From a virus (Duplodnaviria; Heunggongvirae; Uroviricota; Caudoviricetes), in the IMG/VR virus record IMGVR_UViG_2703718822_000008, positions 1 through 42,750 of that record: a stretch of DNA of 42,750 nucleotides; one strand, given 5' to 3'. The position numbers were made by a program, and so were the translations under genes. Positions 1,084-41,061 of this stretch are shown here, in pieces; position 1 is the stretch's first letter; each line of letters begins with the position of its first letter. Below the pieces are notes generated by a model. The model made no database searches. It was given only the letters and a program-made list of their open reading frames with translations, and was not told the origin of the DNA.

Positions 1084-1244
1084 TTTATCAGTTCGCTCCC
1101 ATCCGTACCAGTCCGCAAAATCCCCTGAATATCAAGTCTTCCGTAGATTCACAGTTCGTCATGGTTCGCTTCAGATCGTTGACAGCCGCACTCCATGACG
1201 GGTAAAAAGTGGATAAAATAATTTTACCTACCGGATTTTTACCC

Positions 1245-2402
1245 ATGCTCACCGTTAAGCAGATTGAAGCAGCAAAGCCGAAAGAAAAACCATATCGCCT
1301 TCTCGATGGTAATGGCCTGTACCTTTATGTCCCTGTATCAGGGAAAAAGGTATGGCAGCTTCGCTACAAGATTGACGGTAAGGAGAAAATCCTGACCGTC
1401 GGAAAATATCCGCTTATGACTTTGCAGGAAGCAAGGGATAAGGCATGGACTGCGAGGAAAGACATCTCGGCTGGCATCGATCCGGTAAAGGCGAAAAAGG
1501 CTTCGTCTAACAACAATTCCTTTAGTGCGATTTACAAGGAATGGTACGAGCACAAGAAGCAAGTCTGGTCTGTAGGGTATGCGACTGAACTTGCAAAAAT
1601 GTTTGATGACGACATTTTACCTATCATCGGCGGCCTTGAAATTCAGGATATTGAGCCTATGCAACTGCTGGGAGTAATCCGCAGGTTTGAAGATCGCGGC
1701 GCAATGGAGCGAGCCAACAAAGCACGCAGAAGATGCGGCGAGGTTTTCCGTTACGCTATTGTTACTGGTAGGGCTAAATATAACCCGGCACCTGACCTTG
1801 CTGACGCCATGAAGGGATACCGCAAGAAGAACTTCCCGTTTCTTCCTGCAGACCAGATCCCGGCATTCAACAAAGCACTGGCAACATTTTCAGGAAGTAT
1901 CGTATCGCTCATTGCGACCAAAGTTTTACGCTACACAGCCCTAAGAACGAAAGAGCTTCGTTCCATGCAATGGAAGAACGTCGATTTTGAAAACAGGATT
2001 ATCACCATCGACGCCAGTGTGATGAAGGGACGCAAAATTCATGTGGTCCCGATGTCAGACCAGGTGGTTGAACTTCTCACTACGCTAAGCTCAATCACCA
2101 AACCAGTATCAGAGTTTGTTTTTGCCGGGCGCAACGATAAGAAGAAGCCAATCTGCGAGAACGCGGTACTGCTTGTGATCAAACAAATCGGCTATGAGGG
2201 TCTGGAAAGCGGTCACGGATTCAGGCATGAATTCAGCACGATTATGAACGAGCACGAATGGCCTGCTGACGCTATTGAAGTGCAGCTGGCACATGCCAAC
2301 GGTGGATCTGTGCGCGGTATTTACAACCATGCTCAGTATCTCGATAAGCGCAGAGAAATGATGCAGTGGTGGGCGGATTGGCTTGATGAAAAGGAGGGGT
2401 AA
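1245..2402 (+). CDS. intS: Tyrosine integrase, IntS-like (lambda integrase family)
   Basis: ORF 1209-2402 (GTG at 1209); the ATG at 1245 gives MLTVKQIEAAKPKEKPYRLL, which matches the recalled IntS N-terminus (385 aa); C-terminal catalytic region with R..HGFRH..Y; adjacent to argW. Confidence 0.8.
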   Translation: MLTVKQIEAAKPKEKPYRLLDGNGLYLYVPVSGKKVWQLRYKIDGKEKILTVGKYPLMTLQEARDKAWTARKDISAGIDPVKAKKASSNNNSFSAIYKEWYEHKKQVWSVGYATELAKMFDDDILPIIGGLEIQDIEPMQLLGVIRRFEDRGAMERANKARRRCGEVFRYAIVTGRAKYNPAPDLADAMKGYRKKNFPFLPADQIPAFNKALATFSGSIVSLIATKVLRYTALRTKELRSMQWKNVDFENRIITIDASVMKGRKIHVVPMSDQVVELLTTLSSITKPVSEFVFAGRNDKKKPICENAVLLVIKQIGYEGLESGHGFRHEFSTIMNEHEWPADAIEVQLAHANGGSVRGIYNHAQYLDKRREMMQWWADWLDEKEG

Positions 2403-2428
2403 ACATCCATACAATATCTCTGATAGAA

Positions 2429-2458
2429 CAAAGCCTCGCGCTGGATCGCAAGGCTTTG
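2429..2458. terminator. Hairpin between the convergent integrase and tailspike genes (possible bidirectional terminator)
   Basis: caaagcct-N14-aggctttg inverted repeat in the 190-bp gap between two convergent genes; no strong U-run, so weak. Confidence 0.3.
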
Positions 2459-2592
2459 TGTGTCTCAGTTTAACATTATCATTAAACTAAACAAATAAGG
2501 AACTAACAAATAAATGCATAGTGCACTTTATTTCGTATATCATTTCGAAAATAAAGACAAAATAGTTGCAGTAAATGTTGATGTACCATTGT

Positions 2593-4920
2593 TCATAATA
2601 CAAGTTTTACCACCTGAGTATCCAGATATGGTTTGCGAAACTGGACTTCCTGTTGTTGGGAAAATGGTGATTTCACCCCCCCCTTCAATACTCTAACTTT
2701 GCCCGTAACATCAACCGATGAACTTGAAACAGACGTGAGAGATCCGTTGGTCATTGTATAAAAGTTTATAGTTCCTGTTGCTGTTCTGCTTACACCACAT
2801 CCTGATTTTTGCTTCTGTTTATAGTTAAACAATACCAGCAGGCCAACAGGCATTGACTCAAGCTCAACTGCTGTAGACTGGTAGGTCTTACTGCCGTTGC
2901 TCATGTCAGGAGCCTCATCGTCTGGATCAGAAAAATTATACCCAAGAGTTAAATCATTAACCGTGGCATTATTCCCTGTTATTCCTTTGACTTGATTAAC
3001 ACTTAACGGTATGTAATTAAACCCTGCAAAAAGCGGTGTTAACTTTTCTCTAAATAAAAGGCCTGGTGGGTATACTACCGAAGGTGTACCATCATATGTC
3101 ACTGAGATAATATTAAGTCCCTTTTTAAGGGTTCCAATGCGCGTTGTTTGTTTGCCTGTAAATGATGTTAGCCCATTGCTGGCAACTTTACCTGATAGAT
3201 AAGAAGAGTTCCTGATGTCATTGAGAATGACATTGAACTGGTTAACACGATTTGATGAAGTATAAGTTGGGTTATATGGCTCAAATAATGTTACAGAGAT
3301 ATCGCTTGTATCACTCCATACAAAATACCGACAAATAACATTTTCATTTGAAGGCGTAATCCTTCCCCATCCACCAAGCGCATCAAGATAATCACCTCCA
3401 CTTAATATCGAAATTGATGGGTAGTATCTTGTATTTGAAGGGTATCCAATACCAATAAATGAAAGTTGAGTAGTAGGGATTAGGTTCTTATTTTTTACAG
3501 CTGTATAAACGCGCTCTTTTAATACCTCTTTTGCAGCATAAGCACCGATGTATGCATGACCTATCGTTGATGGATGGCTCTGGTCAAAGACAGTGCCGCC
3601 ATCACGTTTGGCAACATCAGATATGGAGTACGCGCCAATATCTGCATAAGCGTCAGTTGTGGCAACTGACAGATCCAGAAACTCAACTTTTTGAAAAAGA
3701 CGCTCGATACGCTTCTTAATGGCTGCCTCCAGAAAAGCCTTTGGCGCATCGTTATTATTTACAGTAACAAAGCATATCGGACAACCATATCCCCATGATT
3801 TTCTAATCAACTTTTCAAACTCATGAAAATACGCTTCAAATCCTATTGTTGGAAGTATTCCATTGTCATTAAAACCAAGGCTTATAAAAAGAACATCAGG
3901 AGCTTTTTTTCCATACGCAGCATTCTGGAAAAATCCATAGTCGAAGTTTTCATAACCCCAACCTGTGGCTAAAGCCTTTCCTGAAGAGGCACAGTTGTAT
4001 CCTTTAAAAATATTTGTTGTACTGTCAGATAGCATGTTCAGGCAATCAGTGAAGATCCTGAACCAGGAATACTTTCCGCCATTGAGGTTGTGGTTGTGGT
4101 TGGTTGAATTAAGATTACCATCGCTATCAGTTGGGTTTGGTTCCCATCCAGAACTATAGGCTCCATCCGTTATAGAATCACCAATGATACCTACATGGCA
4201 ATCTTCTACAGTTGATGGGTAACCCTGCTTATTTGCAAATTTAGCAATTGTTCCAAGAGCAGTAAAATCAGGGCCATTGTTAGATAGACCAACATCAAAA
4301 ACATGCTCATTACCCCATGGATCTCTTGTAAGTATTTTCCCTTCACCTTTTAACTTTGTCACATCATCTTCAGGAAGAAGATTGCATCTTACCGTTATAT
4401 TCCTTGGTATATATACATTTCCTTCTTGTCCAAAAATAATATCTCTGTTATCAGTGTTCAAATCTGAAACAAAACTGGTAACTATTTTTCCATTATTAAT
4501 CTCATCAAGCGAGTCACCAACAGTTGACGTTGCATAACCAACAATGTATGCACCATTTGCAGATGAAAGTTGATAACTAAATTGATCTGGATCGTACTTC
4601 AGCACATTCGGGAAATAGAACTGCTGCACACCATACGCATCATATACAGCCATAGAATGGCCTTGCACAGTTACGAACTTGGCAATCTGCCCGTTATATA
4701 CCGGGTAACCAGCAGCGTTAATGATGATTGGTTGCGAAACAGGAACGTGAGAACCGTCTTCGTTTTCCACATAAACCTGAATTTGGTTTTCAGGATTTAC
4801 CGGGTCCGTGTCAATTTTACCAATATAAATTTTTCCATTAGCTACGGCTTTAAAAGAACGAGCCATAGTGAAGAGTTGCGAAGGCATTCCTATAACCACA
4901 TTTGGTGTTATATTAGTCAT
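2593..4920 (-). CDS. Tailspike protein: P22 gp9-type head-binding N-terminal domain with an SGNH/GDSL esterase-like central domain
   Basis: From the ATG at 4920 the N-terminus MTNITPNVV...[38 protein letters not shown] closely matches the recalled P22 tailspike head-binding domain; SGNH blocks GDSITDG (nt 4174-4182), GFNDNG and DQSHP follow; last gene of the virion module; the track ORF extends upstream to 5022 but the homology start is 4920. Confidence 0.8.
2676..2683 (-). repeat. G8 homopolymer (C8 on the plus strand) inside the 3' end of the tailspike coding sequence
   Basis: Direct reading: tttcaccccccccttc; lies 27 codons before the annotated stop. Confidence 0.9.
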
Positions 4921-5111
4921 GTGTGCAATCCTATTAGACATGCTTGATAAAGAAGATAATGGAGTTAATGCTACAAATGACGCTATTGATTTGAAAAATG
5001 ATCTTCTATTCATATTAAACACACATTAATGCAGAAAATTTGCATTAATGTAAGCAAAAAGCTCAATCAACTCCATAGCAATTTAATTTTTAACTGTAAT
5101 TTACATCTACA

Positions 5112-7505
5112 TTACCATGACAACGCATCAGACTTGGCACCCTGAGTCAGGGCGTTAATGACCTTTTGCGCCTGCTGCATGGCTTTCTCAAACGCTGTTG
5201 ATCCGCGTGGGGTATTTGCCATTCGGAGCATTGCATTTCTGAATGGTTCGCTCTCATAGGCGCGAGTAAGAAGTCCGTAGCTTACCGCTGCGCCAGTTGT
5301 CGCCGGGTTCATTGCCGTCCCGTACCCGATAATGAACGGGATGGTTTGCTGCCCTGTTGGTGTTGTTACTGCCGCTTTTGCAGCCTGTTGCGTGGATTGC
5401 AGGTAGTTTTTCAATCCTTTCAGATAAGCAGCATCCTGACCTTTAAATGTGATGCCAGTCTGGTTTTGCAGGATGTTAAGCTGTCGAAGGAACTGGTCAG
5501 GGGAACCACCTGATTTCTCCATCGCCTTTCCAATGATGCCATTGCGCATTTGCGCCCTGCCAACACGACCAACTGAGTTATACAGTGTCTTAATTTCAGA
5601 TTTGTTCTTGCTGAATAGCATGTTATTGACAACTTCCGGCGTCAGATCGCCTTTCATGAGAACATTCTTCAGCCTGGTATTCTTGAGTTTCGCCGCTTCG
5701 TCAGCGTAGACGGCATTGGCCTGCTGATATTTACGGAGAGTATCGTTGCCAAGATTCTGACCAATGGCACCATTGATATCGTCGGTCATTGCCTTGTAAA
5801 CGCGCTGAATGGCAGCATCGGAACGGTTTGGTAACACTGGTCGCTCCCCCTTCACGTCCATTCTGAACTGGCTGCGCAGATCTCTTAATTGCTTCAAATC
5901 CAGATTTACCGGACCATCAGGACCAGCATTGCGAACAAGCTCATCACGATAGGACTGAAGTTTTGAAATAGTCTCGTTATCAGCAACCTTACCAAGCTTC
6001 TGCAGGTTAGATATTTCTGTATCAATCTGCTGAATTGCTCGCGCAGGCTGAATGTTTACTCCAGCCATAGCATTCTGAACCTGCTCCAGTCGATTACCGG
6101 CGGCACGACGAATTCCTGATGTTTTCGCTTTAAGGCTGTCAATAACAACCGCTGGATCATACTCACCGAATTTATCGGCAAATCTCTGCACCAACTGGCT
6201 TCTCGCTTCCTGTTGCGTTGCTCTCATTCCGCTTGTGCCAGCCAGGGGGATATTTTCTGCTGTAGTCTGCGCCATTTTCCCGACGCGGGAAGTAGGCTGT
6301 AACAGGTCTGTGGTGTGCAGAGGAACTCCTTCACGCTCTGCAAACCTGATAGCCTGTTGAGCTTCTGGTGCTATCGAACCACGAACACCACGATAAGCAG
6401 CACCTAATCCACGCCCGGCAGCGTTAATAGCACCGCCAGCCAGCACACCAACGCCTAAATCGGTGGCGAGTGCTTCCGCATCATCTTTCGCACTGTTTGC
6501 AGCAAGTGATCCAACTGCGTTTTCTGCTAGAAGGCGAGTTGCCCCCTGAGCAATTCGACCAGCAAGTGTTGGTGCCTGTGTTGCCGCTCTCTCAACGCCA
6601 GCAGGAGTGAGGTAAGGCAATGCTTCAGCAAATACCCTTCCCTCTGTCGTTTGTGGAGTCAGCGCGCCTTGCTGAAGGCCAAAGTCCTGCTCTAATCCCT
6701 GCGTTGTTACTCGTGGTGCTGGTTGATATGTACCATCGCCAATGCCGAGTTTACCGCCAGCCCAAGCCGCCGCGCTTGTTACAGCATCAGTGAGTTCAGC
6801 AGGTATGTTCGCTACGTTGATTCCTGCCTGTAGTAAGCCGCGCCCGGTTTCAGCAAGTCCATTACCAAGGTCAGACATTATTCCGCCTTGCTGCTGAACA
6901 GGTTTCGGTGCGACAGAACTTACGGGTTGAGGTGGCTGCTGACTGGCTGCCTGCTGCTCAATCTGAGCAAATGGATTATTTGGGTCTGACTGCACGCCTG
7001 ATGCCGATACTTGTTCGGATGACTGTGCTTCCAGTTGTGCAAACGGGTTGTTAGGGTCTTGCTGAGGATGTACCTTTGCAGAGGTGGCGCGCTGTTCGAC
7101 TGTTGAGTCTGTCACCGGGTCACCCGCCCATTGAGCAAAGCGATCATCAACGTAACCGCGGCCTTCAGGTCCTGGCGTATATTCACCACGCTTTGCCTTC
7201 ATAACGTTGCCGGGACCGTCGTGATAAGCCTGAAGAGCGTCACGCCAGTTACCAAACTGCTGGTACATCTTTGCCAGATAGCGCGCGCCAGCGTCAGCCT
7301 GATATTCGGGGTTTTGCATTTGCTCATCGGTATAACCCATATCACGCCATGTCCCAGGCATGACCTGAGTCAATCCTACAGCCCCGGCGGAGCTTACTGC
7401 GGCAGGGTTGTAAGAAGACTCCTTGGCACCCAGTGCAGTCATCAACCCTTCTGGCACACCGTAACGTGCGCCAGCCTGCTCTAACAAATCACGGTAATTA
7501 GCCAT
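5112..7505 (-). CDS. Ejection/internal virion protein (P22 gp16 position) with N-terminal lytic transglycosylase (SLT) domain
   Basis: 797-aa ORF; N-terminus ...ALGAKESSYNPAAVSSAGAVGLTQVMPGTW... resembles the SLT catalytic region; located between the gp20-like gene and the tailspike. Confidence 0.6.
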   Translation of the reverse strand: MANYRDLLEQAGARYGVPEGLMTALGAKESSYNPAAVSSAGAVGLTQVMPGTWRDMGYTDEQMQNPEYQADAGARYLAKMYQQFGNWRDALQAYHDGPGNVMKAKRGEYTPGPEGRGYVDDRFAQWAGDPVTDSTVEQRATSAKVHPQQDPNNPFAQLEAQSSEQVSASGVQSDPNNPFAQIEQQAASQQPPQPVSSVAPKPVQQQGGIMSDLGNGLAETGRGLLQAGINVANIPAELTDAVTSAAAWAGGKLGIGDGTYQPAPRVTTQGLEQDFGLQQGALTPQTTEGRVFAEALPYLTPAGVERAATQAPTLAGRIAQGATRLLAENAVGSLAANSAKDDAEALATDLGVGVLAGGAINAAGRGLGAAYRGVRGSIAPEAQQAIRFAEREGVPLHTTDLLQPTSRVGKMAQTTAENIPLAGTSGMRATQQEARSQLVQRFADKFGEYDPAVVIDSLKAKTSGIRRAAGNRLEQVQNAMAGVNIQPARAIQQIDTEISNLQKLGKVADNETISKLQSYRDELVRNAGPDGPVNLDLKQLRDLRSQFRMDVKGERPVLPNRSDAAIQRVYKAMTDDINGAIGQNLGNDTLRKYQQANAVYADEAAKLKNTRLKNVLMKGDLTPEVVNNMLFSKNKSEIKTLYNSVGRVGRAQMRNGIIGKAMEKSGGSPDQFLRQLNILQNQTGITFKGQDAAYLKGLKNYLQSTQQAAKAAVTTPTGQQTIPFIIGYGTAMNPATTGAAVSYGLLTRAYESEPFRNAMLRMANTPRGSTAFEKAMQQAQKVINALTQGAKSDALSW

Positions 7506-8837
7506 TTACTGCCCCAAAGATGGAAGATATCCGTAGCGATTAATGAAGTCGATTGACAGCTCGGGGTGCTGCTTCAGGTAATCTATAGAAGCCTGAGGCG
7601 CTTCCACTCGCTTGATACCGTTTTGCTGAACGTACTTACCAACCGCCTCATTACGCTTCTGGTTGAGCGTGTTCAGGATGACGCCAGCGTTGCGACGAAA
7701 GGACTCCTCGCTCTGCGAGTTCTGCAGCGAACCAACAGCCTGGTCGAGCTTTTTGCCCTCGGCATCAGAAAGTGCGCCCATGCCTCGCATGGCCTGAACC
7801 GCTGTCAGGTATGCTTGTGATTTAAAGGTATCAAGTCGTGCCTGAGTGTCTGCAGCCTGTGAGCCTGGAACGTTGGGGATTACTCCACGTAAGCCTGTAA
7901 TGCTCTTAAGTGAAGGAGAACTAACGATATCGTTCAGAGTGAACATGCTGGTTGTGAGGGTGTTGATGCCGTCTTTGTAGCCATCATTTAGCGCTTGCTG
8001 CTTCTGCTGCAACTGCTGGTTGTTGGCTGCTATGCGGCTCTGTATTTCCTGGCGCTTCAGGTCGTTAGTTTCTGCTGATAGCATCCGGTCAAGGCGCTTA
8101 TTTTCGTTGTTAATGCGGTTTGTTTCTGCGTCCAGATTAATGCGCTGCTGACCTAAATTCGCCTGGATATCTTGCCCGCGCATTGTGATTGCCTGATTCC
8201 GAGCGGCGGTTTGCGAATCCAGATCCTGACCGCGCATGGTAACCTGGCGACCCTGCATTTTATCCTGTAGGTCAAAGTATTTTTCGGGTCCGAGACTGTT
8301 CATCCCCAGGTGATCGACAAATTCGCCGAACTGCCGCGGGTTCTGTTGGTACATCTGAGCGACGTCCTGAGGATTAACGCCAACACGAGCTAACTCACCG
8401 GCGTTGTTTTGCAGCCATGATTGCATTGCTTCTGGAGACGATGACGCAAGGCGTGCGCCAGCCGCTAAGGTGCCGATAGAATTACGCTGATCTTCATCAA
8501 TGAATCCCATGCCTTTACGAACGGATTCAATCTGTTCTGGATATTGAGTAGCCAACTGACGCAAAGCACCGCGATCACCAGACGCATAAGCATTAGCGTA
8601 TGCCTGCTGAAATTCTTTCTGCCGCTGAGCCTGCTTTTCCTGCTGAAACACCCCCGCAATACCTGAAAGGCCTTGCAAAGCAGTCAGCCCAACATTGTTA
8701 GCGCCTGAACGCTCAATATCATTGTTCTGCCTGATAAACTGAAGCGTATTGCCGATGTCATTTACGCTCGGAGCGTTTGAGTTGACGCCGCCGATACCAG
8801 CTAACAATCCGCCGTTTGTTCCTTGCCAAGTAGCCAT
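7506..8837 (-). CDS. Ejection protein, P22 gp20-like
   Basis: 443-aa ORF in the syntenic position between gp7-like and gp16-like genes; Q/N/A-rich. Confidence 0.55.
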   Translation of the reverse strand: MATWQGTNGGLLAGIGGVNSNAPSVNDIGNTLQFIRQNNDIERSGANNVGLTALQGLSGIAGVFQQEKQAQRQKEFQQAYANAYASGDRGALRQLATQYPEQIESVRKGMGFIDEDQRNSIGTLAAGARLASSSPEAMQSWLQNNAGELARVGVNPQDVAQMYQQNPRQFGEFVDHLGMNSLGPEKYFDLQDKMQGRQVTMRGQDLDSQTAARNQAITMRGQDIQANLGQQRINLDAETNRINNENKRLDRMLSAETNDLKRQEIQSRIAANNQQLQQKQQALNDGYKDGINTLTTSMFTLNDIVSSPSLKSITGLRGVIPNVPGSQAADTQARLDTFKSQAYLTAVQAMRGMGALSDAEGKKLDQAVGSLQNSQSEESFRRNAGVILNTLNQKRNEAVGKYVQQNGIKRVEAPQASIDYLKQHPELSIDFINRYGYLPSLGQ

Positions 8838-8846
8838 GATTACCCC

Positions 8847-9539
8847 TTAAAACAACGAGCCAAGCAATCCGATACCAGCACCAATGCCAGCGCCCCAAGG
8901 CGTTGATGTTCCCAAAAGACTGGCAAGACCTGCACCGGCAATCGCACCAGACGTTCCGCCACTAATTGCAGTCTGAAGACTTGATGGTTTATTGGCATTA
9001 GCAGCGGCAAGAGCTGCGCTTTGCTGTGCAATGCTGCTCATGTTGTTGGCGTACGTCTGCCCGGCGTTTGCCTGACCTTGCAGCGCACCAAGCCCAACGT
9101 TTGCCAGATTGTTGTAATTGCTCATCTGGTTTGATAACCAAGACTGACCGAGTGTCGGCGCGATCGTAGCCAGTTGATTGCTTGTGGCTGTCGAACCAAG
9201 TCCGCCAGTCGCTTCCGCAGCAGCAAGACTCTGGTAACGAGCCTGACCTGCAAGGTCTTTATACTGCTGAGAATTGTAATACTGATTAAGTGCCTGCCCC
9301 TGACCTTCTAAACTGGAAAGATTCTGAAGCTGGTTAACATACTGCTCCGCAAGCGGCGTGAACGGAGCAAGGTTTTTCATGATCGTCTGCCACTGCTGAT
9401 TTTGCAGGTCTGCGGCATACTTCTGAGCTTCTGCGGCATACTTTGCGCTTTTATCAGAACTGCCACCTTTCCCGCCTTTTTCAGGGCAATAAGGTTCCTC
9501 GCCGCGCAGTTTTCTGCCCAGCTTAAATGCATATAACAT
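8847..9539 (-). CDS. Ejection protein, P22 gp7-like
   Basis: 230-aa ORF (P22 gp7 is about 229 aa); synteny; Gly/Ala-rich C-terminus. Confidence 0.55.
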   Translation of the reverse strand: MLYAFKLGRKLRGEEPYCPEKGGKGGSSDKSAKYAAEAQKYAADLQNQQWQTIMKNLAPFTPLAEQYVNQLQNLSSLEGQGQALNQYYNSQQYKDLAGQARYQSLAAAEATGGLGSTATSNQLATIAPTLGQSWLSNQMSNYNNLANVGLGALQGQANAGQTYANNMSSIAQQSAALAAANANKPSSLQTAISGGTSGAIAGAGLASLLGTSTPWGAGIGAGIGLLGSLF

Positions 9540-9541
9540 GG

Positions 9542-9997
9542 CTATCTCCCGTGATTCAGGAAGTCGATTAGTTCTTCGCGTGTGGCGCTGTAAAACGTCA
9601 CGTCATCCACGCCTTTGAAGTATTTTTTGATGGTTCCTACACGATTAAGGCCAATCATTGCGCAGTACATCTGACCGTGGCGGAATTTGCGTGCAGCGAA
9701 CGATGTGACGCACTGAACGGTGGTGTTAGTCAGAATGTATCGCCAGAAAGCCAGCCCGATTTCCTTGCTGAATCCGCGAATCTCTGGCAGGTACATGGCG
9801 TGGCAATCAAAGGTCAGCGGCTGAATCTCCTGATAGTAAACAATTCCGCCGAACTGCCCGTGCACGTTAACCTCAAAGTAACGGCATTCATGTTTGTAGT
9901 CATATCCATCACCGTTGTTGCTCCCGGCGATAATGTCAGGGTGATTTCCTACTGCTTCGATCAGGTCGATGTTTCGCGTTGGTTTGAATGTAATCAT
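9542..9997 (-). CDS. Head-completion/ejection-associated protein in the P22 gp14 position
   Basis: 151-aa ORF between the tail needle and gp7-like genes; assigned by synteny only. Confidence 0.45.
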   Translation of the reverse strand: MITFKPTRNIDLIEAVGNHPDIIAGSNNGDGYDYKHECRYFEVNVHGQFGGIVYYQEIQPLTFDCHAMYLPEIRGFSKEIGLAFWRYILTNTTVQCVTSFAARKFRHGQMYCAMIGLNRVGTIKKYFKGVDDVTFYSATREELIDFLNHGR

Positions 9998-12116: not shown

Positions 12117-12594
12117 TTATTCGCTCCCGTTATCACAAGGTTCCTTTCGGTGGAAGTAATTCCAACCGTTCCACTTCGCCAACTGATTACCGCTACCAAC
12201 AGGCATACGGTTTGGATAACCGGACTTACATTTAGCGGCTTTTGCTCTGTCCATTGCAGACAGTTTGACGAGTCGCTCTTTCCCGTATCTGGCAGTGGTT
12301 ATAAGTTTTGCTGACGCTTCCAGCGCATAATCCGGAGCAATGCGGCAGGCAAGGTTGAAAATGACGGCATTGATAGCGTTATTTGATAAACCGTGCTCAT
12401 CGCCCGGATCCGGAGCGACATCTGCATCAGCAAAAATGTAGCCAACGTTGATACCAGGTGACGCATCACCGCCAAGCCATTCAGCCATCATCATTTCAAG
12501 GTCGTTGACGCCGTCTTCCATGGACTGAGGTTCGACATCGGTTAACGTGGCATTTGATGCCACACCGAGCTTACGTAATGCCGCAAGAACTAAA

Positions 12595-12617
<23 letters not shown>
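12117..12617 (-). CDS. Head-completion protein, P22 gp4-like
   Basis: From the ATG at 12617: [33 protein letters not shown]... matches the recalled P22 gp4 start MQIKTKGDLV; the track ORF extends to 12710 through the hexanucleotide repeat, probably spuriously. Confidence 0.75.
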
Positions 12618-12849
<232 letters not shown>

Positions 12850-28536: not shown

Positions 28537-29973
28537 TCAGAATCCTCCTTTCTTCTTGGACTGCGGCTCCTCGCGTTCACGGCGGCGCATTTCAGCAGAC
28601 TGTTGGTCTGTGTCATAAATAGCGCCATTTGCCTGAATGCAATACACCGTGCCGGTATTGCCATGACGATTGAGACGAAGGATTAGTTCGGTTTCACCAG
28701 GTGGAACACTGTCATCAAAAGCACCTTCACGATGGATCCCCACCCAATAATCGCAATCCTGTTCAATCTGCCCTGTATCTCGTGAGTCACTTGGTAATGG
28801 GCGTTTATTGGTTCTGCTTTCCAGTGCGCGGTTAAGCTGCGTCAGAAGCACAACAACGCAATCAAGCTCTTTGGCAAGGTTCTTCAGTCCTTTGGTGATC
28901 ATGCCGTAAGCAAGGTCGTTGCGATCGGCCTTCTCAGCGGTCATTAGTGTCAGGTAATCGACCAGAATCATGCCAACACATCCCTTTTCTCGCTTGATTC
29001 GACGGCTTTCGCTAACGATTTGAGCCAGAGATAATCCCGGCGTGTCGTCGATGTAAAGCAGGTCGATTTCACTCAAACGATTAGCTGTTTCGATCGCCCT
29101 GTTGAAGTCACCATCGTAATCACCCTGATAGCCGTCATCAGCGTCATTTGTCGCCGGAAGGTAAAAAATATTCGGGTTAACACCAGACTTCTGCCCTACC
29201 AGTTTTTCCAGTATCTGATCACCTGGCATTTCAAGGCTGAACATCAGAGCGGGCTTTTTCTCATGCACTGCGCAGTTGATTGCCATCTGGCTGTATAGCG
29301 TCGTTTTCCCCATCTTAGGGCGAGCGCCAATGACAAACAGAGAGCCTTTCACCAGACCTTTCGGTGACAGCATCCTGTCCAGCGATGGGATCCCTGTGCT
29401 CATTCCTCGTTGTTCTCCTGATGGGTCAAATCTCTTCTCAAGGTCGCTAACCCAGTCTTCCATGACCTCACCAAATGAACGAAGGCCGCGACGCGATCCG
29501 GTTTTTGCATGGTCTGTCAGTTGCGTGAAAATCGACTGAATAGCTTCGTACTTCTGCGTCGCAGTCATTCCGTTGCGGGAATAGAGCAATTCCGTCGCTT
29601 CAGTCATGCGGTTGATGGCGTAGCGTTCCATTGCGGTTTCACGAACCTGCATTGCATAGGCAACGATGTTTGCTGCGCTTGGCGTGTTCTTTGCGATCTC
29701 AGCGATATAAGCAAAACCGCCAACAGACGCCGTTAACGATTTACGCTCCAGTTCATCGAAAAGCGTCAGGCCATCTACTGGCTTTTGCTCCCGGTGCATT
29801 CTGGTTATTTCTTCGAAAAGGATTTTGTGTGGTCGGCTGTAAAATGAGTCAGGCTTCAGCATCGCCAGAACCTTCTGGACGCGCTCACTGCTGTCATCAT
29901 CCAGAAGCAATCCACCAATCACCGCCTGCTCTGCCTCGATGCTATGGGGCGGCGCATAAAAATTATCGGTCAT
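28537..29973 (-). CDS. Replicative DNA helicase, DnaB family (P22 gene 12-like)
   Basis: Walker A GARPKMGKTT; DnaB-like N-terminus ...PHSIEAEQAVIGGLLLD; ATG at 29973 with GAGGGTG upstream (the track start at 29988 is a GTG). Confidence 0.85.
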   Translation of the reverse strand: MTDNFYAPPHSIEAEQAVIGGLLLDDDSSERVQKVLAMLKPDSFYSRPHKILFEEITRMHREQKPVDGLTLFDELERKSLTASVGGFAYIAEIAKNTPSAANIVAYAMQVRETAMERYAINRMTEATELLYSRNGMTATQKYEAIQSIFTQLTDHAKTGSRRGLRSFGEVMEDWVSDLEKRFDPSGEQRGMSTGIPSLDRMLSPKGLVKGSLFVIGARPKMGKTTLYSQMAINCAVHEKKPALMFSLEMPGDQILEKLVGQKSGVNPNIFYLPATNDADDGYQGDYDGDFNRAIETANRLSEIDLLYIDDTPGLSLAQIVSESRRIKREKGCVGMILVDYLTLMTAEKADRNDLAYGMITKGLKNLAKELDCVVVLLTQLNRALESRTNKRPLPSDSRDTGQIEQDCDYWVGIHREGAFDDSVPPGETELILRLNRHGNTGTVYCIQANGAIYDTDQQSAEMRRREREEPQSKKKGGF

Positions 29974-30853
29974 CGTGTTCACCCTCACGAACTTTCAGGT
30001 AGGTATTATCGTTAAGCAGGAAATCAAATCCCTTTTTGTGCCAGACGGTTCCGCGCTGATGGTTTGGGCGCTCTTCGAACATCCATCGGCAATTTTCGCC
30101 TACGTAGCTCAAATAATTTCTCCAGTCCTGCATCGTGAAACCATGCCCGTCAAGCTGTCTGGTTATCACTCCGGCTTTGCGCCAGAACGTTCGGATCTGG
30201 TTTTTACGCTTGTCATTCAGTGCGCGGATTCTTGGCGCTTCAGGAAGGATTTCGTGGTAAGCATCGACAACATCCTGACAGCTAACGGAAGGTTTTTTCT
30301 TGTCAGACTTTTTGTCTGCTGTGGCACTCTCTAATACGTCAGTATTAGAGATATTATTTATATTATTGTTTATGGACAACCGTTGGACAACCGTTGGACA
30401 ATCTCCGCTGAGAGCCGCGCCATTACTGGTGTTTGCGTTGGACAACCGTTGGACAACCGTTGGACAATTTTTTGACTGAAAATCGTCATATTTAACGATT
30501 GTAAACAGGCTAAATTTCTTCCCCATCGAGCAAATATTAAGCATACCTTTCGACTCAAAAGTCCGTAATAAGCTCCGAACTTTGTTGTCGGGGATGAATG
30601 TTTCTCTGACCAGCGACGGGCGTCCAGTTATCATCTGACCGCGATCAACAGTTATCGGACCGATATCCGTATTGACGACAGTAGATTCGTGATTAGCCTT
30701 GAGGATTAAGTGAAGCCAAAGATGTACTGCCTGAGAGTCCTTATAGAGCCTGCTGTCCATAAACTGGCGGTGTATAGAGACATACCCCATACTGGATGCC
30801 TCCTGATGTTGTACAGGGTTATGCCTGTAATCAGCTAACTTAACGACGCCCAT
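29963..30853 (-). CDS. Replication initiation protein (lambda O / P22 gene 18-like) containing the origin iterons
   Basis: 296-aa ORF upstream of the helicase; internal iterons encode the repeated peptide PTVVQRLS; exact start uncertain. Confidence 0.7.
   Translation of the reverse strand: MGVVKLADYRHNPVQHQEASSMGYVSIHRQFMDSRLYKDSQAVHLWLHLILKANHESTVVNTDIGPITVDRGQMITGRPSLVRETFIPDNKVRSLLRTFESKGMLNICSMGKKFSLFTIVKYDDFQSKNCPTVVQRLSNANTSNGAALSGDCPTVVQRLSINNNINNISNTDVLESATADKKSDKKKPSVSCQDVVDAYHEILPEAPRIRALNDKRKNQIRTFWRKAGVITRQLDGHGFTMQDWRNYLSYVGENCRWMFEERPNHQRGTVWHKKGFDFLLNDNTYLKVREGEHDDR
30340..30520. other. Putative origin of replication: two clusters of three 11-bp iterons (TTGGACAACCG) flanked by AT-rich DNA, inside the replication gene
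   Basis: tggacaaccgttggacaaccgttggacaat at 30373-30402 and 30437-30468; AT-rich stretches at 30340-30372 and 30468-30520. Confidence 0.65.
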
Positions 30854-40729: not shown

Positions 40730-40772
40730 TGCCTGATTTGCAGGTTCGATTCCCTATTCGGAGATAGCACTC

Positions 40773-40973: not shown

Positions 40974-41046
40974 AATAGCGGGTAAAATATTTTTTACATC
41001 TAAAAAACACCATTCCAATCAATCCCCTGTCGCTTCAAGTAGATGT

Positions 41047-41061
41047 CTGCAGGGGACACCA
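41047..41061 (+). repeat. attR core, ctgcaggggacacca
   Basis: Exact copy of the argW 3' end at 1069-1083. Confidence 0.7.

Follow-up and report, generated by a model that had tools for sequence, protein, structure and literature searches.

A predicted acetyl-esterase tailspike built on a P22-type head-binding domain in an Escherichia coli prophage at argW

What would a P22-like prophage do to the surface of its host if its tailspike carried the motifs of an esterase in place of a polysaccharide-cutting beta-helix? This question is raised by a minus-strand gene at positions 2593–4920 of the window, by which we mean the whole 42,750-nucleotide stretch of DNA that was analysed (IMG/VR record IMGVR_UViG_2703718822_000008, derived from contig LOJB01000006.1 of E. 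coli assembly GCA_001607365.1). From its sequence relationships we consider it likely, with a probability of roughly 80%, that this gene encodes the single tailspike of a ∼40-kb P22/Sf6/IME10-like prophage at argW, and that the spike is a modular chimera of a head-binding domain and a G7C gp63.1-type acetyl-esterase module. An earlier interpretation drawn from the letters of the DNA (the ‘sequence-only reading’) had likewise proposed a receptor-modifying, deacetylating tailspike; that proposal is now well supported by the homology, the fold and the conserved catalytic residues described below.

As read in the window, the gene begins with an ATG at 4920 and stops at 2593–2595, yielding a protein of 775 residues; a program-made list of open reading frames places the start of this frame at a GTG (2593..5022). 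An identical protein at NCBI (P0001, 100% identity) is named ‘phage tailspike protein [Escherichia coli]’ and occurs only on contig LOJB01000006.1. Residues 1–113 (positions 4582–4920, minus strand) form a P22/Sf6-type head-binding domain and match the Pfam family Head_binding (PF09008) over its full length (216.5 bits against a cutoff of 24, E = 8.8e-65), which places the protein in that family. In phmmer searches of the PDB, the same N-terminus matched the solved structures of Sf6 gp14 (7sg7, E = 7e-66, residues 1–120) and P22 gp9 (2xc1, E = 2.4e-48), bearing out the earlier proposal that the first ∼110 residues resemble the head-binding domain of P22 gp9. This domain fixes the spike trimer to the tail hub, as is established for P22 and Sf6.

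The head-binding domain is followed by a neck or linker (residues 114–146, positions 4483–4581), which is modelled with low confidence (predicted local distance difference test score, pLDDT, below 50 at residues 118–140), and then by a body of another origin. Homologues that have no head-binding domain (the E. coli protein P0004, phage Sciku and phage G7C) begin to align at about residue 145, and tblastn matches in lytic phages begin between residues 117 and 157; the alignments place the junction of the head-binding and esterase modules at about residues 145–150. The best match of the body to a solved structure is the G7C tailspike gp63.1 (4qnl_A, E = 4.3e-75), in one colinear alignment of 476 residues (query 149–624, chain 181–664) whose score lies far beyond chance. 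Three recognizable domains follow one another in the same order as in gp63.1-type spikes: ‘domain 3’ of gp63.1 (PF21562, Gp63_3rd_G7C, E = 4.7e-26; residues 147–210, positions 4291–4482, aligned to 4qnl_A 181–245), an SGNH/GDSL esterase domain (residues ∼240–470, positions 3511–4203) and a galactose-binding-domain-like module (PF21988, G7C_GBD, E = 6.9e-9; residues 491–623, positions 3052–3450, aligned to 4qnl_A up to residue 664). A C-terminal beta-sandwich domain (residue 625 to ancestral residue 793, positions 2543–3048) is homologous to the C-terminal part of gp63.1, as seen both in the sequence alignment and in a structural alignment of 712 columns. All four domains lie on the minus strand. 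No beta-helix glycosidase family was matched by the body in Pfam and PDB profile and sequence searches, and the view that SGNH blocks stand here in place of a glycosidase beta-helix is borne out by these results.

The four blocks that define SGNH hydrolases (GDS, Gly, GxND and DxxH) are all present and aligned with those of gp63.1. Block I is the GDS of residues G247-D248-S249 (nt 4174–4182, within GDSITDG at 4162–4182), with S249 at 4174–4176; block II is G314; block III is GFNDNG (residues 349–354, nt 3859–3876), with N351 at 3868–3870; and block V is DQSHP (residues 446–450, nt 3571–3585), with D446 at 3583–3585 and H449 at 3574–3576. The nucleotide position that had been given for the GDS is correct, and the GFNDNG and DQSHP blocks are present as named; the SGNH domain itself had also been rightly called, with bounds (residues 250–520) that did not hold and give way to ∼240–470. 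The triad S249/D446/H449 aligns with S276/D470/H473 of gp63.1. Conservation was counted in an alignment of 70 proteins, 68 of them esterase-type, at 27–93% identity: S249, H449 and N351 are each kept in 68/68 of the esterase-type homologues and D446 in 64/68, and G314 is also conserved among them. Conservation of the catalytic and oxyanion residues over some 68 homologues is the signature of selection for catalysis.

The fold was assessed with an AlphaFold model of the intact homologue P0002 (794 residues, 93% identical), which has a mean pLDDT of 84.6 and exceeds 90 over most of the body. A single-sequence AlphaFold run on the window protein gave a pLDDT of 30 and was unusable. With the P0002 model as query, a Foldseek search of the PDB returned 4QNL first (E = 6.8e-57, template modelling (TM) scores 0.72/0.68, over the 712 columns mentioned above), followed by the esterase spikes of Shigella phages B2 and Moo19 (9d84, 9d81) and, lower down, by ordinary SGNH esterases such as the arylesterase 3dci. 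The alpha/beta/alpha fold of SGNH hydrolases is present in the model, on the strength of both the 4QNL (TM 0.72) and the 3dci matches. The sequence-only reading had named profile and structure searches for this fold, and a comparison with G7C gp63.1, as its own tests: the fold was found by both kinds of search, and gp63.1 proved to be the closest characterized structure by sequence (E = 4.3e-75) as well as by model (TM 0.72).

The activity of the spike, its substrate and the mechanism of adsorption are predicted here by homology. The spike would bind a host surface polysaccharide that is O-acetylated, most probably the O-antigen, and would hydrolyse the acetyl ester through a predicted Ser249-Asp446-His449 triad, with Gly314 and Asn351 as putative oxyanion residues, leaving the polysaccharide backbone uncut. 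Cycles of binding and deacetylation repeated by the six spikes of the virion could then bring the tail needle to the outer membrane, as has been proposed for G7C. In the passages of PMC10743462 and PMC13123978 that cite Prokhorov 2017, gp63.1 is described as taking an O-acetyl group off the E. coli 4s O-antigen while leaving the chain intact, and its activity as essential for infection, with acetylation-deficient hosts being resistant. The spikes of Moo19 and B2 hydrolyse p-nitrophenyl acetate, and these phages need an O-acetylated O-antigen (PMC11654681).

Could the SGNH domain have been kept as a binding module only, making the spike a non-enzymatic adhesin? We consider this very improbable. 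Nothing specific speaks for it other than the weak scores of general GDSL models, which over residues 244–459 are borderline for PF00657 (Lipase_GDSL, 23.7 bits against a cutoff of 23.6) and below the cutoff for PF13472 (Lipase_GDSL_2, 27.2 bits against 32.9), and it is opposed by the conservation of every catalytic and oxyanion residue across the homologues counted above. Those same scores also weigh against the esterase assignment itself, together with four further points: the structural model is that of a relative and not of the window protein; identity to gp63.1 is ∼33%, so that substrate specificity is not transferable from one to the other; the host rfb locus lies outside the window and its flanks, so that neither the O-antigen type nor its O-acetylation can be read from the window; and this copy of the gene is frameshifted (see below) and may not work at all.

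A related question is whether the target would be the O-antigen or another polysaccharide, such as a group 1/4 capsule, colanic acid, enterobacterial common antigen or an O-acetylated K antigen, in which case the phage would be capsule-specific. In Klebsiella prophages, SGNH receptor-binding proteins follow the capsule type (PMC13123978), and K1 endosialidases are found among P22-like spikes with the same head-binding domain. The characterized relatives of this module family (G7C and, by structure, Moo19 and B2) nevertheless act on the O-antigen, and there is no indication of a capsule in the window. We regard a non-O-antigen target as unlikely.

The window protein and gp63.1 (PDB 4QNL) have in common domain 3, an SGNH domain with aligned Ser, Asp and His, the galactose-binding-like domain and the C-terminal beta-sandwich, and presumably share the chemistry of O-deacetylating a surface polysaccharide without depolymerizing it. 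G7C, however, is lytic and N4-like, and its gp63.1 is attached through N-terminal domains of its own to a second fibre, gp66, whereas in the window a P22 head-binding domain carries the module, which would serve a temperate podovirus as its only spike and is C-terminally frameshifted. With P22 gp9, Sf6 gp14 and HK620 (Lederbergvirus) the prophage shares the head-binding domain (∼95% identity to Sf6 gp14 over 120 residues), the prophage backbone, and the placement of the spike gene last in the late operon, beside int at argW. The spikes of those phages have right-handed beta-helix endoglycosidase bodies that cut the O-antigen, while the window spike has no beta-helix. Virion-borne SGNH esterases that serve host recognition are also known from Shigella phages Moo19 (gp82) and B2 (gp48/49), from Pectobacterium phages PP99 and Possum and from Klebsiella prophages (PMC11654681, PMC9569702, PMC13123978). 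These differ from the window spike in having other virion anchors and in being only distantly similar in structure (TM 0.34). Of all these, only the Klebsiella proteins come from temperate phages, in which they serve as fibres of other phage types.

The 3' end of the gene deserves separate attention. The open reading frame at 2593–4920 exists as the sequence-only reading described it, but its end at 2593 is the product of a 1-nt deletion, and the ancestral frame runs on to a TGA stop codon at 2540–2542 (minus strand). At the frameshift site (2675–2683, minus strand) a run of eight G residues (2676–2683) is followed by T where the intact allele has AT, so that the window allele GGGGGGGG-TGAA stands against GGGGGGGGATGAA in the intact allele of E. 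coli GCA_025875205.1 (locus L005; 340/343 nucleotides identical by blastn, with one gap). With one A missing after the G8 run, the 45 ancestral residues from position 749 onward are replaced by 27 out-of-frame residues; with the A restored, a 793-residue frame ending at the TGA at 2540–2542 is recovered. Among 18 aligned homologues, divergence after ...VRVLKGG is confined to the window protein, which ends 18–19 residues early. The corresponding protein of GCA_025875205.1 (P0013, a partial protein on contig DAJQHX010000072) is identical up to the point of divergence and continues with the ancestral 45 residues; together with P0002, P0004 and all other aligned homologues it retains the ancestral frame. 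In the P0002 model, which has about ten strands between residues 682 and 793 at a pLDDT of ∼90–96, the replaced segment corresponds to the last four strands of the beta-sandwich (750–754, 761–764, 771–777 and 783–793). The complete C-terminal beta-sandwich that marks gp63.1-type spikes is for this reason lacking from the window copy and intact in its 99%-identical counterpart (L005/P0013).

The missing A may be a real mutation or an error of draft assembly; the site would read GGGGGGGGATG if the gene is intact and GGGGGGGGTG if the deletion is real. Were it real, misfolding or weakening of the spike would be probable, and the prophage might fail to produce infectious particles. The alternative to be weighed here is that the gene is decaying in a defective prophage, with a true frameshift, an unfolded C-terminal domain, no functional spike and a locus that has no present function. 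The 1-nt deletion is seen relative to a 99%-identical intact allele, the ancestral C-terminus is kept in 17/17 aligned homologues (including a near-invariant GG at 770–771), four of some ten strands are lost from a confidently modelled domain, and the frameshifted product is found on one contig only, all of which fits decay. Against this, the other open reading frames of the late operon have the usual P22-like lengths with no further break, the prophage is full length with both attachment (att) sites, the missing A adjoins a homopolymer in a draft assembly, where an assembly error is possible, and the catalytic and binding domains are untouched. We give decay a little under an even chance; it bears on this copy, and the chimeric esterase spike described above remains our preferred reading of the gene.

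At the intact locus (L005 1–7578) the spike lies beside Peptidase_S11/PBP5_C, GyrI-like, FUSC and DUF496 genes, with no integrase next to it. The Pfam domains suggest that these neighbours are dacD, sbmC, yeeA and yeeX. On this evidence the same spike is carried by a prophage inserted at a different chromosomal site.

The esterase body has been exchanged between phage types. It is 94% identical from about residue 145 onward in P0004, where it is mounted on another anchor (Tail_spike_N, PF18668) in a different type of E. coli prophage; it is 50% identical in the lytic siphoviruses (Kagunavirus) Sciku, Shashou, Snoke and Schulenburg, and 33% identical in G7C. By sequence comparison, the receptor-binding module is mobile between anchors. 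The PF18668-anchored spike with the 94%-identical body lies at 7001–9745 of loci L124 and L125 (E. coli GCA_044448465.1 and a Logan assembly); genes for two holins, a GH19 endolysin and a spanin-like protein come after it, and ppx is close by.

How widespread is this particular spike? The combination of the head-binding domain with PF21562 and PF21988 recurs in several protein clusters at 40–93% identity, including one from Shimwellia blattae. At the level of megablast, none of 5426 complete E. coli RefSeq genomes contains at least 80% of the tailspike gene, and its first 632 nt are found in 4/5426 at ∼91% identity. The esterase body is absent from all 32 species-representative genomes that have a head-binding-domain spike. 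Our literature search found no published description of an SGNH esterase spike on a P22-like phage; esterase spikes and the exchange of receptor-binding modules between anchors are already well described, and the domain combination is already in databases. We also observed a second, unrelated esterase body on the same head-binding domain, in an IMG/VR prophage (L012, 3201–5102). It belongs to SASA (PF03629, E = 2e-12), a sialate-O-acetylesterase-like carbohydrate esterase. The body of a further IMG/VR prophage (L025) is near-identical to it by eye, and both loci carry the upstream leader discussed below. With a SASA body there besides the SGNH body, esterase spikes on P22-like phages arose at least twice.

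The genomic setting is that of a Lederbergvirus-type (P22/Sf6/IME10-like) prophage in E. coli, of which the tailspike gene is the last late gene, convergent with int, at argW. Phage IME10 matches 79% of nt 5000–29000 at 96.7% identity. The left end of the window holds yfdC (1–933), the tRNA-Arg(CCU) gene argW (1009–1083) and an intS-type integrase gene that adjoins it (1209–2402, plus strand), a stretch that is 97.5% identical to E. coli chromosomes. The attL core lies at 1064–1083, and the 3' end of argW is repeated at 41042–41061 as attR, which delimits the prophage at ∼40 kb. Upstream of the spike lies a gene for a gp16-like ejection protein with a lytic transglycosylase domain (5112–7505, minus strand; PF01464 SLT and PF26808 Phage_P22_gp16). 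The length of this protein varies widely among close relatives (797 residues here, 665 in XYEH3934 and HF4s, 911 in L006). The gap between spike and intS is free of genes and measures 190 bp (137 bp counted to the ancestral stop). It holds a 13-bp GC-rich hairpin (2430–2457; −21.5 kcal/mol when folded with flanks, 2425–2462) that is likely a bidirectional terminator for the two convergent genes. A scan of 2380–5200 for sigma-70 promoters found fewer sites than in shuffled controls and was not informative.

Does the absence of neighbouring conversion genes say anything about the spike? The sequence-only reading had noted that neither gtr nor immI genes accompany it, had placed both at one and the same locus, and had taken the empty slot to mean that surface specificity may be encoded in the spike itself. 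The absence is real: there are no gtr or oac genes between the spike and intS (1209–2402), and no immI genes in the 191 bp that separate the gp16-like gene (5112–7505) from the spike. The shared position is not, as immI lies upstream of the spike in the P22-like phages CUS-3, 720R6 and JEP4, and not between spike and int. In relatives the spike–int slot is filled: Sf6 carries the O-antigen acetylase gene oac there, and HF4s and E. coli XYEH3934 carry gtr, as do KplE1-like prophages. The spike of XYEH3934 is an esterase with the same architecture, 59–63% identical to that of the window. Because esterase-spiked prophages at this identity carry gtr in the slot, a lack of conversion genes does not characterize esterase spikes. 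The slot is empty as described, and the conclusion drawn from it adds little, since relatives with esterase spikes carry gtr and tailspikes always encode receptor specificity.

A separate lead, apart from the verdict on the esterase, lies directly upstream of the spike. In frame with it are 31 codons (4921–5013, minus strand; ATG at 5011–5013) that were left unannotated by the Prokaryotic Genome Annotation Pipeline (PGAP) and encode a leader beginning MNRRSFFK. Its NRRSFFK motif followed by an uncharged stretch of 19 residues fits the pattern Z-R-R-x-hydrophobic-hydrophobic-K plus an uncharged, mildly hydrophobic region, and the predicted peptide resembles a twin-arginine translocation (Tat) export signal. 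Of 80 IMG/VR loci whose head-binding domains are near-identical, the majority have a GGAG ribosome-binding site, and a TAA immediately precedes their spike ATG; 14/80 have an in-frame leader of 31–32 codons starting with ATG or GTG. The leader-bearing loci recorded are the window, L001, L006, L009, L010, L012, L013, L016, L019, L024, L025, L034, L045, L048, L053, L054, L071, L122 (Bas106) and L123 (JEP4). The leaders fall into three families, B1 (MNRRSFFK...), B2 (MKRRTLLK...) and B3 (M(D/N)RRLFFK...), with a fourth type (MNRRQLISK...) in the database proteins P0017 and P0070. These are strongly diverged in DNA, and all keep two arginines, one residue, two hydrophobic residues and an uncharged stretch of 11–19 residues; a K follows the motif directly in B1–B3, where the P0017 type has S and then K. 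In every family the canonical spike start is kept, as a Met with an AGGA-like site ∼8 nt upstream.

The substitution patterns of the leaders indicate that they are translated and under purifying selection. In two B2 copies 8/8 differing sites are synonymous; the ratio of non-synonymous to synonymous divergence per site (pN/pS) between B1 and B3 is ∼0.45; and variants within families are synonymous in 16 cases and non-synonymous in 12, where 24% synonymous would be expected (binomial P = 1.7e-4). The leader is present in the isolated phages Bas106 CurroJimenez, Huey, Dewey, Louie, APC_JM3.2 and JEP4. GenBank starts the spike coding sequence at the leader in Bas106 and JEP4. The annotated spike also covers the leader region in the four remaining BASEL records, and no feature is annotated at that place in APC_JM3.2; published descriptions of the leader-bearing phages make no mention of it. 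In complete E. coli genomes the leader DNA is found in 18/5426 (B1), 4/5426 (B2) and 28/5426 (B3), and is never annotated there. It is absent from the 32 species-representative genomes, and 0/150 of the best cluster representatives align to it. Two broader assignments of the leader were considered and rejected: it is not specific to esterase spikes, as spikes with SASA-esterase, endosialidase/S74 and unclassified bodies also carry it, and it is not general to head-binding-domain spikes, as the ATG is immediately preceded by a stop codon in most IMG/VR relatives and in CUS-3, 720R6 and Sf6.

What such a leader might do is suggested by its closest precedent, WceF of Pantoea stewartii (PDB 6TGF), which matches residues 8–132 of the window spike (phmmer against the PDB, E = 8e-10) and in which, as with the 31-codon twin-arginine-like leader, a leader directly precedes a P22-type head domain. 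Its authors describe a Tat signal of 28 residues, then the head domain (residues 34–146) and a trimeric beta-helix (PMC7949094). Unlike the phage spikes, WceF is no virion protein but an enzyme encoded in a chromosomal exopolysaccharide cluster, and its body is a beta-helix; export by the phage leader is putative. By analogy, a subset of P22-like tailspike genes might encode two isoforms: a virion spike from the canonical ATG, and a long form begun 31–32 codons upstream that would be exported to the periplasm, as is assumed for WceF, and would act on the cell's own O-antigen or capsule as a receptor-destroying or lysogenic-conversion activity. We hold this only tentatively and think it rather doubtful. 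The leader occurs on bodies of many kinds, which counts against it, as does the lack of a Shine-Dalgarno sequence before the leader start. The Tat signal models of Pfam (PF10518) and NCBIfam matched 0/4 leaders at E-values up to 10; as a control, the same models matched 4/5 E. coli Tat signals at E-values of 5e-6 to 4e-3, with only CueO above the cutoff and TorA unmatched. If the two-isoform proposal were true, the activity of the long form could replace the missing gtr or oac genes in this prophage, and WceF-type bacterial enzymes would probably have come from leader-bearing phage spike genes. An AT-rich, perfect 12-bp hairpin with a T-rich tail (5022–5052, minus strand; −14.1 kcal/mol) lies between the ATG of the leader and the gp16-like gene and could be a weak terminator or a structure that affects initiation of the leader. 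As a conserved operator it was rejected, being absent from the B1 variant L012.

Three features elsewhere in the window were noted in passing. A second copy of a 16-nt internal segment of argW (TTGCAGGTTCGATTCC) lies at 40738–40753, ∼300 bp inside the attR copy (41042–41061), and could be a remnant of an earlier integration. Five copies of an 11-bp direct repeat (TGGACAACCGT), in two clusters and in register, occupy 30373–30479 inside the open reading frame 29963..30853 and look like the iterons of lambdoid replication origins. The hexanucleotide TCTGGC is repeated in tandem in about seven copies at 12665–12706, near the start of the minus-strand open reading frame 12117..12710, where it would encode a short dipeptide repeat.

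As the gene in this strain is frameshifted, the strain itself is of limited practical value, and the copies suited to study are the intact allele in GCA_025875205.1 or the 794-residue P0002. The leader is present in isolated phages that are open to direct testing (Bas106, Huey, Dewey, Louie and JEP4) and, if it were a real export signal, it would change the annotation and understanding of a class of tailspike genes. Frequent use of SGNH esterases has recently been observed in temperate Klebsiella phages (PMC13123978), and the window spike would extend this use by temperate phages from Klebsiella to E. coli. We see it as a convenient test case on a chassis that is new for such spikes rather than as a surprise. 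For the question of how podoviruses get through the O-antigen layer, P22, Sf6 and HK620 serve as reference systems, and each of them cleaves the polysaccharide. Purified spikes can be mounted in vitro on P22-type particles, and such particles eject their DNA on purified lipopolysaccharide, which makes an experiment practical. A phage of the same genus with an esterase as its only spike would be a clean test of whether deacetylation alone suffices to bring the tail needle to the outer membrane, a question raised for G7C as ‘cut or pull’ (PMC10743462).

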